NCBI GenBank assembly: GCA_964510945.1
Contig: CAZEED010000002.1
Span: 144,924 to 208,923 of the forward strand
Length of the DNA: 64,000 nt
DNA from: an uncultured Candidatus Saccharibacteria bacterium
GTDB taxonomy: Bacteria > Patescibacteriota > Saccharimonadia > Saccharimonadales > JAGQNJ01
Direction of reading: 5' to 3'
In this document: positions 5,519 to 54,131 of the stretch, piece by piece
Numbering within the stretch: the first letter of the stretch is position 1
How the letters are laid out: every line of letters begins with the position of its first letter
Made by a program: the position numbers and the translations under genes
Notes under the pieces: model-generated
Told to the model about the DNA's origin: nothing
The model's input: the letters and a program-made list of their open reading frames with translations, nothing else
The model's database searches: none

Positions 5519-6331
5519 TTGAAGTACATTTGGTCGTTTGGGATTTTACTAAAAAGATTGTTGATTTTTTTGTTTTCGGTTTCGATTGTTTTTTTAATAT
5601 ACACGACGCTTCTACCGGAAGTTTGGAGGCGCGATAACGTACTGATTAGTCTAACCATTCTTTGGCTGGTGACAGCATATTTTGTCTTGCCCCGAATACA
5701 TAGATTGCTGTCTAGGATCTATGTACCTGATAATTTTATCGGCAGGACAAGAACGGTTGACGGACTATTATGCGACCCCGTAAATATGGCTATCAACGGC
5801 AATAAACGTGACCTTATTTACGCAATGGAGGATGCCGGTTGGACACTTGCTGAAAAGCTAACTGTTAGGTCCATATGGCTCATGGTTAAATCGGTGGCAC
5901 TTCGAAAAAGCTACCCCTCGGCGCCTGTAAGCGATGCCATACTATTTGGTAACAAGCAGGATTTTGCTTTTCAGATGGAGGTCGAGAATAATCCCAGAAA
6001 AAGGCATCATATTAGGTTCTGGAAAGCGCCAAAAGGTTGGTATCTGCCGGGTGGGCATAAAGTAGATTGGCTAGGTGCGGCGACATATGATGAGGCGGTA
6101 GGATTATCGTTGTTCACGATGCAGTTTACTCATAGTATCGATTCTAATGTAGATAAAGAACGAGATTTTATTATCAATAGTTTACAGACTGCAGGGCGAA
6201 TATCGAAAGCCAATCGTATTGAGCATTTTTTTAGTGCTTATAAAACCAGGAATGGCTTTGGACACCATTATATTACTGATGGTTCTATGGTGATTGCTGA
6301 ATTAAAGCCATCAAAGAATAGGCAAAAATGA
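5519..6331 (+). CDS. LssY-like C-terminal domain membrane protein
   Basis: TTG start directly after the mutM stop. N-terminal TM helices. HHIRFWKAP...DWLGAATYD resembles the LssY C-terminal domain. Confidence 0.55.
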   Translation: MKYIWSFGILLKRLLIFLFSVSIVFLIYTTLLPEVWRRDNVLISLTILWLVTAYFVLPRIHRLLSRIYVPDNFIGRTRTVDGLLCDPVNMAINGNKRDLIYAMEDAGWTLAEKLTVRSIWLMVKSVALRKSYPSAPVSDAILFGNKQDFAFQMEVENNPRKRHHIRFWKAPKGWYLPGGHKVDWLGAATYDEAVGLSLFTMQFTHSIDSNVDKERDFIINSLQTAGRISKANRIEHFFSAYKTRNGFGHHYITDGSMVIAELKPSKNRQK

Positions 6332-41881: not shown

Positions 41882-42796
41882 CTAACTAGGGTCTCTATGG
41901 AATTGATCGTGGATTTTCTTCAAGTGTGGATCGGTTACATGGGTATAGATCTGTGTAGTTGCTACGTTACTATGGCCTAGCATAGCCTGTACGCTTCGTA
42001 GATCTGCGCCGTTCATAAGTAGATCGGTCGCGAATGAGTGTCGCAAGGTATGCGGAGAGACATGTTTGGTGATTCCCGCTGACTTTGCATATTTTTCGAC
42101 CATTCTTTGTACACTACGTGGCGAAAGTCGTTTGTAGTCTCCACTCAAATTTGCAGAATTTTTACCGCTGTTATTGATAAAGAGTGGTGTTAGTGTGTCA
42201 GTTCGTTTTTCTAGGTATCGTTCTATCCACTCGACCACGTTTTCGCTAATAAAGATTGGTCGATCTTTTTGACCTTTACCTCGCACCATGAATTCACGAC
42301 GTTTGAGGTTGATGTCGTCACGATTTAGCTTTACTAGCTCAGAAACTCTAAGTCCACTAGAAAACAACAATTCTAAGATGGCACGATCACGTAGTCCCGC
42401 AATATTTTCTGTTTTTGGCGCAGAAAATAACCGCGTAAGTTCGTCTTGGTCTAGAAAGGTTACTTGCGGTCTTTTTGTCCTTGCTAGCTCAATTTTATCC
42501 GCAGGGAGCGTGTCGATATCTCTCTTTGCACAAAATTTTAAAAATGATCGGAGAGCTATGAGATGGTAATTTTGAGTAGTTTTTTGTAGTTCGTCAGATG
42601 TATTAGTACCTAATCTGTTTAGCCATAGACGCCATTTTTGCACAAATTCTGGCGTTATGTCGCTAAGTTTAATATCTCCGCCAAAATCTTCTAACCGCGT
42701 TAGGTAATGGTCGTAATTTTGAATAGTTTTTTGTGAACGGTTTTGTTCAATTTCTAGATATTCTAAAAAGTCGGTTTTAGCTTTAGCAAATTGCAT
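41882..42796 (-). CDS. xerC: Tyrosine recombinase, XerC/XerD family
   Basis: An N-terminal SAM-like core-binding domain. Catalytic residues lie in SGLRVSEL, HTLRHSFATDLL and GHSNVATTQIYTHV. Confidence 0.9.
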   Translation of the reverse strand: MQFAKAKTDFLEYLEIEQNRSQKTIQNYDHYLTRLEDFGGDIKLSDITPEFVQKWRLWLNRLGTNTSDELQKTTQNYHLIALRSFLKFCAKRDIDTLPADKIELARTKRPQVTFLDQDELTRLFSAPKTENIAGLRDRAILELLFSSGLRVSELVKLNRDDINLKRREFMVRGKGQKDRPIFISENVVEWIERYLEKRTDTLTPLFINNSGKNSANLSGDYKRLSPRSVQRMVEKYAKSAGITKHVSPHTLRHSFATDLLMNGADLRSVQAMLGHSNVATTQIYTHVTDPHLKKIHDQFHRDPS

Positions 42797-44044: not shown

Positions 44045-44152
44045 TGGTACCCCGGACAGGATTCGAATTGATTGATCCGCTCGAGAGCTAAAGCATCTCG
44101 CTAGAAATATGTATAACTCAACCAGTCCCCGACTGTTTTCGCCTCGCGGTCC
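44045..44152 (-). repeat. tRNA-3'-tailed conserved element, copy 1 (~108 nt)
   Basis: It aligns with 53969-54079, and the core is ~59/64 identical. It ends (minus strand) in TTCGAATCCTGTCCGGGGTACCA, identical to the last 23 nt of the adjacent tRNA-Arg. Confidence 0.7.
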
Positions 44153-44164
44153 TAATCCAGGCTC

Positions 44165-44209
44165 AGAAATAAGAGTAGTCGATAGGTGACGATGTCACCA
44201 ACCGACTAC
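44165..44209 (-). terminator. Hairpin plus U-rich tract immediately after tRNA-Arg
   Basis: Minus strand: GTAGTCG-gtt-GGTGAC-atc-GTCACC-tat-CGACTAC, followed by TCTTATTTCT. Confidence 0.55.
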
Positions 44210-44286
44210 TGGTACCCCGGACAGGATTCGAACCTGTGACGCCCGCCTTAGGACGGCGGCGCTCTAATCCACTGAGCTACCGGGGC
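44210..44286 (-). tRNA. tRNA-Arg (anticodon CCT), CCA encoded
   Basis: GCCCCGG-TA-GCTC-AGTGGATTA-GAGC-G-CCGCC-GTCCTAA-GGCGG-GCGTC-ACAGG-TTCGAAT-CCTGT-CCGGGGT-A-CCA. Full cloverleaf. Confidence 0.92.
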
Positions 44287-48471: not shown

Positions 48472-48533
48472 TGTTGCTGTTAACAGATAAAACTGCTATC
48501 ATTTCACTTGTTCGCTTTTTAGCTATTTCAGGT

Positions 48534-48710
48534 GCATCACACACGTGCATTTGAGCATAATAGCGTTGTTCTTGTCGAGGAAACGGAACAAGACGTACAA
48601 ATGGTACGGCGAAGTGAGTACCGCAGATAAAACAGCGGTAGGATGCCGAAAGTTTAACAGTGATGTTAGCTTGGCTAACATGCAGGTTAAACAGTGCACA
48701 TGTGTGATGC
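48534..48710 (+). ncRNA. Candidate structured RNA (~177 nt) abutting the 5' end of tRNA-Asp
   Basis: GCATCACACACGTGCA (48534-48549) pairs 15/16 with TGCACATGTGTGATGC (48695-48710). The closing helix encloses at least three hairpins, including GTTTAAC-agtg-ATGTTAGC-ttg-GCTAACAT-gcag-GTTAAAC. Confidence 0.4.
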
Positions 48711-48788: not shown

Positions 48789-48789
48789 T

Positions 48790-48822
48790 GAAAAGAGAGT
48801 CACCTTGAGTGGCTCTTTTTTC
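48790..48822 (+). terminator. Rho-independent terminator after tRNA-Asp
   Basis: AAAAGAGAGTCAC-cttga-GTGGCTCTTTT (with G-U pairs) followed by a TTTTTT run. Confidence 0.7.
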
Positions 48823-48879
48823 ATGCTGTGTCTCGATTGAATTCGAATTAGGCGATGTGGATTTGCCTTTGGCAAAGAC

Positions 48880-48966
48880 GCGAATCGTCGGTTCGGTCAT
48901 CAAGCCCGCGCACAGAAGCTTGCTTCGAGCATAGGTGTAGATGTGCGGAGAAGGCCAAGCCCGCCA
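48880..48966 (+). pseudogene. Two degenerate tRNA-Asp 3'-end fragments
   Basis: 48880-48912 (GCGAATCGTCGGTTCGGTCATCAAGCCCGCGCA) aligns to GAGATCGCCGGTTCGAATCCGGTCGGGCCCGCCA of tRNA-Asp. 48953-48966 is GGCCAAGCCCGCCA. Confidence 0.4.
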
Positions 48967-52126: not shown

Positions 52127-53227
52127 ATGCAACCCACGAAATACAACAGCGTAATAAGCATAAAAGATATCAAAAATGGTGTTAGGCAAGGTATCCTCAC
52201 CACAAGATCAGGGGTGGCCAATACTCCGTTATTTATGCCGGTCGGCACTAGAGGGGCGGTGAAATCGTTAACACCAGATCAGGTCAAAACAACAGGCGCA
52301 CAAATAATCCTAGGTAATACTTACCATTTGCATATGCAACCGGGCGAAAAGACCGTCGCACAATTAGGTGGGCTACATACGTTTATGAATTGGAACGGCC
52401 CAATATTGACTGATTCGGGTGGTTTTCAGGTATTCTCGCTTGCCCATATTAGTACGATCACCGAAGAAGGGGTTAAATTTAAGGATCCGACTAATGGTGA
52501 TTTGATTGAGCTAACTCCTGAGAAAGCTATCCAGATTCAGCTTGATCTGGGGTCTGATATTATTATGGCCTTTGATGATGTGGCTGGCCTGAACGGCGTA
52601 TCAAAACAGCGAGGTAAAGAAGCTTACGAACGAACGCATAGATGGCTAGAGCGGTCTCTAAGAGCCTTTAGGGATGGCACAAAAGATTTAGTGATAGGTG
52701 ACCGACCTTTATTCTTTGGCATCGCTCAAGGCGGACTTAATAAAAAACTACGACAAAAAAGTATAGAAACAGTTCAGTCGTTAGACGTAGACGGTCTAGC
52801 TATCGGCGGTTTATCGGTCGGTGAAGCTAGGCCTGATATGTATAAAATGCTAAAGTTCATGGCTCCGATTTATGACGAGAATAAACCGCATTATCTTATG
52901 GGCGTAGGCGATCCTAAAGACATGCGAGTCGCAATAGAGAACGGCATTGACATGTTTGATTGTGTCTTGCCGACTCGGAACGCCCGTCATGGCTCCGCAT
53001 GGGTAACAGGCGATAAGCTGATTCATCTTACTAATGCAAAATACACAAAAGACACAGCTGTTATTGATAAAAACTGTGATTGCTATACTTGTAAAGAAGG
53101 TTTTTCGCGGGGTTTTTTGCGCCATCAGTTTAAAGTAGGCGAATCACTGTCTGGATCATTGGTGTCGATCCATAACATTCGTTACCTCGAGCGGTTGTGT
53201 GAGGAGTATCGAAGTGCTAGTAATTGA
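52127..53227 (+). CDS. tgt: Queuine tRNA-ribosyltransferase
   Basis: TPLFMPVGT, ILTDSGGFQVFSL, MAFDD and LMGVGDP, plus the zinc site CDCYTC...H. Confidence 0.95.
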   Translation: MQPTKYNSVISIKDIKNGVRQGILTTRSGVANTPLFMPVGTRGAVKSLTPDQVKTTGAQIILGNTYHLHMQPGEKTVAQLGGLHTFMNWNGPILTDSGGFQVFSLAHISTITEEGVKFKDPTNGDLIELTPEKAIQIQLDLGSDIIMAFDDVAGLNGVSKQRGKEAYERTHRWLERSLRAFRDGTKDLVIGDRPLFFGIAQGGLNKKLRQKSIETVQSLDVDGLAIGGLSVGEARPDMYKMLKFMAPIYDENKPHYLMGVGDPKDMRVAIENGIDMFDCVLPTRNARHGSAWVTGDKLIHLTNAKYTKDTAVIDKNCDCYTCKEGFSRGFLRHQFKVGESLSGSLVSIHNIRYLERLCEEYRSASN

Positions 53228-53261
53228 CAAATATGCACAAGTATAGGATAATTGTAGTCTT

Positions 53262-53966
53262 ATGAAATTGAGTGAGACTCTAGATCGAGATGCGGCGTCA
53301 CAAGTTTTTACAGGTTGGCTGAAAAGTGAACATGCACGTGTACATACCCTAACCCTTAAAGATCCGAGTATAATGAGCGATCTAAATGCTATGCGCAGTG
53401 CTACGGCTTCTGAATATGATAGTTATGAGAACATCCCGGCCCGTAAAACAGAGCAGCACCTTGTACGGGCCCGTCTACGTTTGGAATCTCTAGAAGATGA
53501 TTATGATCTTGAAATTGCAGGCCGTGGTCTCAGTGATATCTTAAAGTTGGTTGCTGGACAGCAGGTTAAACGAGCACTTGCCATGTCGCGCACTCAAGCT
53601 GAATTTTCATCATTTGCCACTACTATGTATCTGACCACTCCTATCAGTGTGCACAGTGCCTGTGTTATGGACGTAGCTGACCCAACTGAATCCATCACTC
53701 CGGCCCTGGATTTACTAGATTTCAAAGTTGAAGGGTCGCTTCGGGCAATCAACCAATTGTCTCGGGAGGGTAGCGATTGGGGTGAATTGAATTCACCAAT
53801 GACTCAAGCTGCCTGGCTTGGCGAAGTTGCCTGTATTGAGGCTGCCTTTAGCGCCATTGAGTATGTAGCAGCCCGTACCGGAAGTTATGAGGCGGTACCA
53901 CTTCGTCCACCAGCCAAAGATGATCAAGATATTGAGCCTATTTTTCCGTTTCAGGCAGCGGGATAA
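53262..53966 (+). CDS. Hypothetical protein (orphan)
   Basis: 234-aa ORF. Its GC looks slightly higher by eye than neighbouring genes. No recognisable motif. Confidence 0.55.
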   Translation: MKLSETLDRDAASQVFTGWLKSEHARVHTLTLKDPSIMSDLNAMRSATASEYDSYENIPARKTEQHLVRARLRLESLEDDYDLEIAGRGLSDILKLVAGQQVKRALAMSRTQAEFSSFATTMYLTTPISVHSACVMDVADPTESITPALDLLDFKVEGSLRAINQLSREGSDWGELNSPMTQAAWLGEVACIEAAFSAIEYVAARTGSYEAVPLRPPAKDDQDIEPIFPFQAAG

Positions 53967-53968
53967 GA

Positions 53969-54079
53969 TGGTGGGCGGTACAGGATTCGAATTAATTGAT
54001 CCGCTCGAGAGCTAGGGAGCATCTCGCTATAAATATGTATAACCCTAGACAGCTCCCAGCTTTTTTCGCCTCTCGGTTC
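53969..54079 (-). repeat. tRNA-3'-tailed conserved element, copy 2 (~111 nt)
   Basis: It aligns with 44045-44152. It ends (minus strand) in TTCGAATCCTGT-ACCGCCC-A-CCA, a tRNA-like 3' terminus that does not match the adjacent tRNA-Val acceptor. Confidence 0.7.
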
Positions 54080-54094
54080 GAATATGCACAGACC

Positions 54095-54125
54095 AAAATA
54101 AATACCCCATCTGTTGATGAGGCAT
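54095..54125 (-). terminator. Hairpin plus U tract after tRNA-Val
   Basis: Minus strand: ATGCCTCATC-aaca-GATGGGGTAT (10 bp including two G-U pairs) followed by TTATTTT. Confidence 0.55.
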
Positions 54126-54131
54126 ATATTT

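Follow-up and report, generated by a model that had tools for sequence, protein, structure and literature searches.

A short non-coding module joined to a copied tRNA 3' end in Candidatus Saccharibacteria: a candidate miniature element at tRNA genes

In a 64-kb stretch of contig CAZEED010000002.1 from an uncultured Candidatus Saccharibacteria bacterium (the whole stretch that was analysed, referred to below as the window), the tRNA-Arg(CCT) gene is followed on the minus strand by a hairpin, a conserved non-coding module and an exact copy of the final 23 nucleotides of the gene itself. The same module stands behind tRNA-Val(GAC) in the window and is missing from orthologous sites in some relatives. 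The best explanation we can offer, and one that we hold with moderate confidence, is a miniature non-autonomous element that has an attachment site on either side, is directed at the T-loop-to-CCA part of tRNA genes and depends on mobilization in trans. The initial annotation of this DNA had proposed an attL/attR-type integration at the tRNA-Arg gene. The layout on which it relied is real and is now joined by empty sites and by other inserts at the same tRNA ends; its additional hints (a copy at tRNA-Asp, a repeat of the neighbouring tRNA, a nearby Xer gene and a D-loop-like relic) did not survive the analysis described below.

The insert behind tRNA-Arg and its second copy

Homologues of the CYTH protein encoded next to the insert assign the window to Candidatus Saccharibacteria, and the gene order at the locus is Xer-type recombinase, nucleoside diphosphate kinase, CYTH, tRNA-Arg (on the opposite strand) and S8 peptidase. 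Both ARAGORN and Rfam (tRNA family, 61.7 bits) place the tRNA-Arg(CCT) gene at 44286-44210 of the minus strand. Its final 23 nt, TTCGAATCCTGTCCGGGGTACCA, which run from the first T-loop base through CCA, occur exactly twice, at 44232-44210 (the proximal copy, within the gene) and at 44067-44045 (the distal copy), with a spacing of 165 nt. This duplication, noted in the initial annotation, was reproduced upon recomputation, and none of 100 dinucleotide-preserving shuffles contained a similar match even with up to three mismatches allowed.

Between the two copies the insert is composed of two parts. The first (44209-44165, minus strand) is a variable spacer with a hairpin and a T-rich tract placed straight after the CCA; the inverted-repeat scan confirmed the hairpin reported there, with 17-nt arms (44174-44190 / 44194-44210) that are 88% complementary. 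The second is the conserved non-coding module (44158-44068, minus strand), supported by alignments, nhmmer hits, cross-lineage identity and structure counts. It opens with the 5' motif GGATTAGGACCG (44147-44158), contains a hairpin CAGTC-GGG-GACTG (44123-44135) and an A/T-rich stretch (~44101-44113), and closes with the 3' block CTCGAGCGGATCAATCAA (44068-44085), which continues directly into the distal 23-mer. On the far side of this 23-mer lies the native flank (TCCTTC...), and then the end of the CYTH gene.

The possibility of a second tRNA, a pseudo-tRNA, a split tRNA or a transfer-messenger RNA (tmRNA) at 44045-44209 was rejected, as neither cloverleaf partners nor a 5' acceptor strand are present. 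In agreement with the initial annotation, no RCCCCGG acceptor strand occurs in the intervening 142 nt, where ARAGORN makes no tRNA or tmRNA call; the 5' strand of the T stem is likewise missing, as judged from the sequence, ahead of the T loop in the distal copy. The 142-nt insert has no Rfam match, even at E<=10, and Rfam 15 at the gathering score holds no family for the module, the best sub-threshold hits overlapping the tRNA itself. As had also been claimed, the insert encodes nothing: its single open reading frame (ORF; 26 amino acids, aa) is on the opposite strand, and short ORFs are not conserved. On the other hand, the suggestion that part of the module is decayed tRNA sequence fails. 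The D-loop-like match behind it, TGGATTAG, is an 8-mer that reads TGGATTCG in L002 (a contig of the same species) and in the related contigs L011 and L013; it is thus not a conserved tRNA relic but a chance 8-mer.

Alignment of the tRNA-Arg and tRNA-Val loci revealed a common module of ~92 nt that continues into TTCGAATCCTGT with ~84% identity, the flanks being unrelated, and a hidden Markov model built from the module copies recognized exactly these two places in the window. The second copy is also arranged on the minus strand. The tRNA-Val(GAC) gene ahead of it (54208-54132; ARAGORN) carries a GGGCTCT-type allele, 98.7% identical to tRNA-Val of the contigs L028 and L029. It is followed by a spacer (54131-54086) with a T tract and a terminator-like hairpin (54125-54102), detected by a terminator scan and as an inverted repeat, and by the second module (54085-53992; alignment and nhmmer, 84% identical to the tRNA-Arg copy), with its 5' motif ATATTCGAACCG at 54074-54085, a hairpin AGCT-GGG-AGCT at 54051-54061 and the 3' block at 53992-54009. 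A terminal 23-mer, TTCGAATCCTGTACCGCCCACCA (53991-53969), then leads into the native flank of a gene encoding a 234-aa protein. In every copy the spacer between CCA and module (47-54 nt) contains a hairpin of a sequence unrelated to that of the others, and the overall spacing is 165 nt at tRNA-Arg, 163 nt at tRNA-Val and 169 nt in L011.

The terminal 23-mer at this locus is not, as originally assumed, a repeat of the neighbouring tRNA. It agrees with the 3' end of the adjacent tRNA-Val in 18 of 23 positions (78%), including the final 8 nt, and matches in 23 of 23 the positions 55-77 of tRNA-Val in the contig L027, a gene that is intact and module-free at the same position. The flank that follows TTCGAATCCTGTACCGCCCACCA is homologous to the L027 flank as well, so that the 23-mer represents a real tRNA-gene end joined to the module. 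The adjacent tRNA-Val, together with its promoter and the leader of the threonyl-tRNA synthetase (ThrRS) gene, is instead 94-98% identical to L028 and L029. Two histories may account for this combination. An element whose attachment sequence reproduces an L027-type tRNA-Val end may have recombined with the resident tRNA-Val within the shared final 8 nt, GCCCACCA; or a classical T-loop crossover into an L027-type tRNA-Val may have been followed by replacement of the tRNA allele. The former is favored because no 5' fragment of the L027-type allele is present at the tRNA-Val locus of the window.

The expectation that the same element recurs at other loci was borne out at tRNA-Val and failed at tRNA-Asp, where alignment and nhmmer exclude a third copy and the 8-mer GCCCGCCA is all of the module that recurs. 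Downstream of tRNA-Asp (48789-48966) there are scattered fragments of that gene (including a T-arm 12-mer, a D-arm 10-mer and the final 8-mer), which are not significantly similar to the module of tRNA-Arg and tRNA-Val. In a related contig (L012, 6695-6845), a copy of tRNA-Asp with an insert of ~70 nt in the T loop is found just upstream of the real gene; this insert was tried as a module homologue and rejected, its similarity being not significant with respect to shuffles.

Occupancy and conservation among relatives

Comparison with related genomes showed both occupied and empty orthologous sites. The module and the 23-mer are located beside CYTH or tRNA-Arg in L011, L013, L032 and L033, down to 76% identity of the CYTH protein, and the distal 23-mer is unchanged in all four and in L025. 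On the other side, tRNA-Arg(CCT) in L012 (CYTH 64% identical) adjoins CYTH with nothing in between, and in L027 and L029 tRNA-Val(GAC) directly adjoins a homologue of the 234-aa gene of the window. The empty sites, which the initial annotation had named as a check, identify the module as an insertion. Polymorphic occupancy, named along with them, is observed across species; within the species it was not seen among ~20 contigs, so there is no sign of current activity.

A strict 23-base pattern, applied to 185,579 species representatives (one genome per GTDB species), retrieved one further genome (L013), and a looser two-block pattern yielded one true metagenome match (L025) and two chance matches. 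Independent metagenome assemblies (L006, L008, L031, L032, L033 and L036) end within the conserved 3' block of the module, and the number of assemblies broken inside it suggests a multi-copy repeat. In the L025 contig, tRNA-Gln is accompanied by a hairpin and by the 5' half of the module in diverged form, and these are joined to the 3' half of the tRNA-Arg copy with its CYTH flank; the contig looks like a recombinant, or an assembly chimera, of a tRNA-Gln-linked module and the tRNA-Arg copy. Together with the assembly breaks, it suggests at least one further genomic copy, probably behind tRNA-Gln. A search for the native tRNA-Gln locus, by means of the partial protein encoded beside tRNA-Gln in L025, found no homologue, and the third copy is only inferred for that reason. 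In total, the window holds two copies and the genome probably three or more.

The module is conserved far beyond the neutral expectation. Between lineages it retains 85-91% identity. In the comparison of the window with L011, the module is 88% and the tRNA promoter 87% identical, against 51-61% at the third codon positions of four flanking genes; when L013 is included, the ranges are 85-88% for the module and 47-61% for third codon positions of flanking genes. The typical third-codon-position identity of the lineages compared is ~52%, which is near saturation, and the spacer between CCA and module is unalignable between the window and L011. The terminal ~68 nt, made up of CTCGAGCGGATCAATCAA, the 23-mer and neighbouring bases, do not vary among the lineages with a module at the tRNA-Arg locus, apart from one variant in L032. 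What acts on the module is either purifying selection or recent spread.

These observations bear directly on the view of the module as an inert scar, that is, as what would be left of an island, or of a tandem duplication of the tRNA, after decay, now inactive and without function. Such a scar would be expected to lack coding capacity and a linked mobility gene, as the module does, and the uniform occupancy within the species, the visible decay of a copy in L028 (see below) and the partial tRNA fragments that are common around tRNA genes in this clade would all be in line with it. However, one 92-nt sequence with sharp and identical boundaries is present at two loci of one genome, and the same sequence cannot arise twice by independent decay. 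Moreover, module and 23-mer remain 85-100% conserved where silent sites approach saturation, and the last 68 nt show no variation in six lineages. An identity far above that of silent sites, in combination with the assembly breaks, argues that the module is not an inert scar, and we disfavor this view as highly improbable.

Folding of the module and traffic at tRNA ends

RNAalifold predicts a closing helix in which the 5' end of the module, GGAUUCGGACCG, pairs with CGG and the copied T-loop/T-stem sequence UUCGAAUCC, leaving the acceptor 3' strand and the ACCA free. All three variable pairs of this helix are retained through G-U wobbles, and in the internal hairpin two pairs are changed on both sides (CAGUC-GGG-GACUG at tRNA-Arg vs AGCU-GGG-AGCU at tRNA-Val). 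In the predicted structure 94% of cells are paired, compared to ~40% or less with the partners slid (seven sequences, of which about four are independent). On the other hand, a third helix is broken without compensation in L011 and L013, and the predicted folds are no more stable than those of shuffled sequences (z from -0.4 to -1.6). Overall, the predicted structure of the module is no more than suggestive.

This structure is the core of the main rival explanation, a structured RNA that mimics the 3' end of a tRNA. Module and 23-mer would together form a small RNA gene, expressed by read-through from the tRNA promoter or by processing of the tRNA transcript; with its free tRNA-like tail it could serve readers of tRNA 3' ends as a mimic, decoy or guide, and its copies could spread by recombination between real and mimic ends. 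Apart from the wobble-kept closing helix, the high fraction of paired cells and the two hairpin pairs changed on both sides, it would explain why the module is conserved well beyond neutrality, at about the level of the tRNA promoter, as well as the near-constant distance at which all conserved copies directly follow a tRNA and a hairpin (the gene-separated copy in L028 being decayed). Several observations speak against it: the shuffle-like stability, the uncompensated third helix, the small number of independent sequences, in which the two compensatory pairs may be a single event, and the lack of an Rfam match. Furthermore, no promoter of its own is evident, a terminator-like hairpin separates the tRNA from the module, and relatives with empty sites demonstrate that the module is an insertion and can be dispensed with. 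A T-box-like reading fails too, since the putative specifier triplet does not track the identity of the tRNA (AGG/CGG is available for Arg, but there is no GUC for Val and no CAA for Gln), and the UUAGGAC match to the anticodon loop of tRNA-Arg is unique to the window copy. We regard the structured-RNA explanation as unlikely.

A separate candidate for an undescribed small RNA may reside in the 239-nt spacer between tRNA-Thr and tRNA-Asp (48472-48710, plus strand). This spacer is predicted to fold far better than its shuffles (z = -3.7, with 0 of 200 as stable) through a long closing helix, GCAUCACACACGUGCA / UGCACAUGUGUGAUGC, and has no Rfam match.

The tRNA ends occupied by the module also receive other DNA. 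In L002, of the same species, an island (L002 3403-6200) is joined exactly at GTACCA/GTAGTCGG, between the position of tRNA-Arg and the hairpin (corresponding to 44209/44210 of the window), giving the junction sequence CCA/GTAGTC. The island encodes proteins of the metal-resistance type: two for cation efflux, one copper-binding and one DsbA-like. L011 and L013 have two additional small genes beyond the distal tRNA-Arg 23-mer. The L002 island and these extra genes make the tRNA-Arg site a recombination hot spot. In L028 the order is tRNA-Val, a gene for a 228-aa protein (49% identical to the 234-aa protein of the window), a decayed 3' half of the module with a decayed tRNA-Val end, TTCAAATCTATACCACCCACCA, and a glycosyltransferase gene unrelated to the 234-aa gene. 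The gene placed between tRNA-Val and the decayed module indicates that the module marks the distal end of inserts able to carry cargo. In fact, comparison of the window (53218-54131) with L028 (1190-2648) shows that everything from TGT to tRNA-Val has been swapped between flanks that are 90-98% identical, which puts the module precisely at the boundary between a tRNA-gene end and DNA of another origin. The idea of larger islands at the same tRNA ends is thus supported by the L002 island at the tRNA-Arg CCA and by the gene insert in L028, although no larger element carrying the module itself was found in the collections searched. A side observation in L028 and L029 is that the stop codon of the 228-aa gene falls inside the tRNA-Val 3' end.

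A comparable arrangement exists on the 5' side of tRNA-Arg. Immediately 5' of the gene, some strains have and others lack a cassette of 302 nt for a GIY-YIG protein of 79 aa (Pfam E = 9e-14): it is present in L001 (3850-4157), L003, L030 and L013 (2325-2564), and the window has the empty site at 44286/44287. The cassette is flanked by tRNA positions 1-11, a 32-nt hairpin and positions 12-22, which mirrors the 3' arrangement. Ahead of tRNA-Gln(TTG) in L025 (838-960, minus strand) there is a copy of the first 13 nt of that gene, a hairpin and a D-arm fragment, with no ORF; in style this copy resembles the flank of the GIY-YIG cassette.

Such 5' cassettes raise an alternative based on break repair or homing. 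A nuclease, for which the small GIY-YIG protein would be the candidate, would cut the tRNA gene, and the break would be mended from a donor, or by homology-facilitated illegitimate recombination after natural transformation has brought in foreign DNA; the incoming DNA would have its own tRNA end or a whole tRNA, and the displaced 23-nt end would be left behind. The strain-variable cassette with its partial copy of tRNA positions 1-22, the similar 5' copy at tRNA-Gln in L025 and the type IV pilus and competence-like genes encoded in the window are all compatible with this scenario. So is the tRNA-Val locus, where tRNA and upstream sequence are of the L028/L029 allele (94-98%) and the 23-mer and downstream gene of the L027 type, as expected of co-conversion. 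However, the presence of the GIY-YIG cassette is not coupled to that of the 3' module, which L011 and the window carry in the absence of the cassette, and the 79-aa protein has no apparent DNA-binding domain of the kind carried by known homing GIY-YIG enzymes (I-TevI-type). In addition, donor-templated repair requires homology on either side and would only shift the question of how the arrangement arose to the donor. Finally, the identity block begins exactly at the T loop, a textbook mark of integrases that cross over in tRNA loops. Taken together, break repair seems to us a quite unlikely source of the module.

Mechanism and comparison with known systems

The repeat block from T loop to CCA, the empty sites, the stacked inserts and the swapped cassettes are standard marks of site-specific integration into tRNA genes, for which P4-type and T-loop-type integrase sites were reportedly described by Williams in 2002 (Nucleic Acids Res). 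In the proposed mechanism, the element would consist of a variable terminator-type hairpin (47-54 nt), the conserved module (~92 nt) and the 23-nt copy of a tRNA 3' end. Its entry would be a site-specific recombination event within the stretch from T loop to CCA of a tRNA gene, one that spares the tRNA and supplies it with a hairpin terminator. The partial tRNA copy would mark the far junction, and the two ends would represent an attL/attR pair. As the element encodes nothing, its movement must depend on a recombinase provided in trans, which would probably be a tyrosine integrase from a phage, plasmid or island with a preference for the same tRNA ends. The arm recognized by this enzyme and its accessory factors could be the conserved module, whose two ends form a 12-bp inverted repeat with an interruption (GGATTCGRACCG ... 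CGG-9 nt-TTCGAATCC) that reproduces T-arm sequence. The crossover may take place within the shared final ~8 nt, as the tRNA-Val copy suggests, unless the tRNA-Val allele was replaced later. Excision would join the 23-mer to the spacer hairpin, with a circle junction ...GGATCAATCAATTCGAATCCTGTCCGGGGTACCA/GTAGTCGGTTGG, and leave behind an empty-site junction, tRNA-Arg...GGGGTACCA/TCCTTCAAGC. The type of the enzyme, the position of the crossover, mobilization in trans and the function of the arm are what we infer from the layout.

The XerC/D-family gene at 41882-42796, which the initial annotation pointed to as the only recombinase in the window, does not qualify as the integrase of the element. 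Relatives retain it in synteny at 76-96% identity, whether or not they have the module; its protein is 94-96% identical in relatives whose CYTH is 76% identical, and it is retained in the module-less L012. It is a housekeeping gene and does not belong to the feature. Neither the window nor the loci examined in relatives contain any further detectable tyrosine recombinase. A phage or plasmid origin of the module was also tried and dismissed: blastn gave no match in 50,697 phage records or 72,556 plasmid records, three module patterns had no match in IMG/VR, and the terminal 23-mers match only unrelated viral tRNA genes among viral sequences. One IMG/VR contig, 3300047994_000202 (L035), has two odd tRNA-like genes (5720-5810 and 6180-6260) that are not called by ARAGORN, one of which bears the exact 23-nt tRNA-Arg 3' end and a long extra arm.

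A number of observations weigh against an element mobilized in trans. Neither in nor beside any copy is there an integrase, the syntenic Xer-type gene being the sole detectable tyrosine recombinase of the window. No larger element carrying the module was found in GTDB species representatives, JGI metagenomes, IMG/VR, GenBank phages or PLSDB plasmids; the pattern searches were all strict, so that a diverged parent could have been missed. The uniform occupancy among same-species contigs was described above. Only one side of the insert is conserved, while classical attP sites have two arms, and the tRNA-Val copy does not conform to the simplest T-loop crossover model, since the adjacent tRNA-Val differs in allele throughout. 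Finally, the compensatory and wobble-preserving changes fit a folded RNA or a single strand and would be unexpected for a double-stranded protein-binding site. A further conceivable reading is a protein-free targeting device, in which the fold of an RNA or of single-stranded DNA would clamp the T-loop copy and expose the acceptor 3' strand and CCA as a guide or handle for a host or helper enzyme. In that case the changeable 7-nt acceptor segment (CCGGGGT or ACCGCCC) could set the tRNA target, and the module may act together with the GIY-YIG cassette at the other end of the same tRNA genes. We consider such a device very unlikely.

Saccharibacteria and other members of the candidate phyla radiation (CPR) have, to our knowledge, tiny genomes with few described mobile elements and a poorly known exchange of genes. 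The module provides a sequence tag for integration hot spots and swapped gene cassettes in Saccharibacteria genomes, and a handle for finding the recombinase and the helper element. In practical terms, binning and synteny analysis should take into account that it interrupts metagenome assemblies at tRNA loci. If the module were instead an RNA that mimics a tRNA end, it would represent a new class of small RNAs in a phylum with almost no characterized regulatory RNAs.

With respect to known systems, the module resembles miniature inverted-repeat transposable elements (MITEs) in being short, non-coding, multi-copy and non-autonomous, and in its ability to fold back through its two ends. Unlike MITEs, it is not bordered by a short target-site duplication, the interrupted 12-bp repeat of its ends copies a tRNA T arm, and its target is the end of a specific gene. 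The flanking repeat comprises 23 nt of gene sequence, which points to a recombinase rather than a transposase, and an identity as a MITE was rejected on these grounds. Homing-endonuclease cassettes of organelle genes bring in a replacement gene end and leave the displaced end as a fragment. The order of intact gene, insert and displaced end is shared with them, and at tRNA-Val the intact and the displaced ends indeed differ; however, the 3' insert has no endonuclease gene, and the GIY-YIG cassette is found at the opposite end of the tRNA, with an independent pattern of variation.

Parallels are also found among elements that target tRNA genes and their derivatives. Partial-tRNA repeats flank integrated elements and their remnants, and the tycheposons and island remnants of Prochlorococcus are tRNA-targeting and leave partial-tRNA footprints (bioRxiv 10.1101/2020.12.28.424599). 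The module shares with these an identity block from the T loop to the tRNA end, empty sites, stacked inserts and variable cargo after the tRNA. It differs in that no integrase is found in any copy or elsewhere in the window, no full-length parent was found, and the tRNA-Val copy ends in a tRNA-Val allele other than the one that precedes it. Cis-mobilizable elements (CIMEs) keep attL and attR after the loss of all mobility genes (PMC5704250). Like a CIME, the module lies between the end of a tRNA gene and a direct repeat of this end, is devoid of genes for integration or transfer, and sits at a site that accretes other elements (L002, L011/L013 and L028). On the other hand, CIMEs extend over kilobases and the module unit over ~165 nt, with no recognizable parent remnant, and its retention at several tRNA genes and across lineages marks a family and not a one-off deletion product. 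What is unusual here is the small size, the lack of a parent relic, the presence of one short sequence at several tRNA genes and in several lineages, and the near-constant order of hairpin, module and tRNA end. Overall, the module most likely represents a small-scale version of a known route by which foreign DNA enters bacterial genomes.

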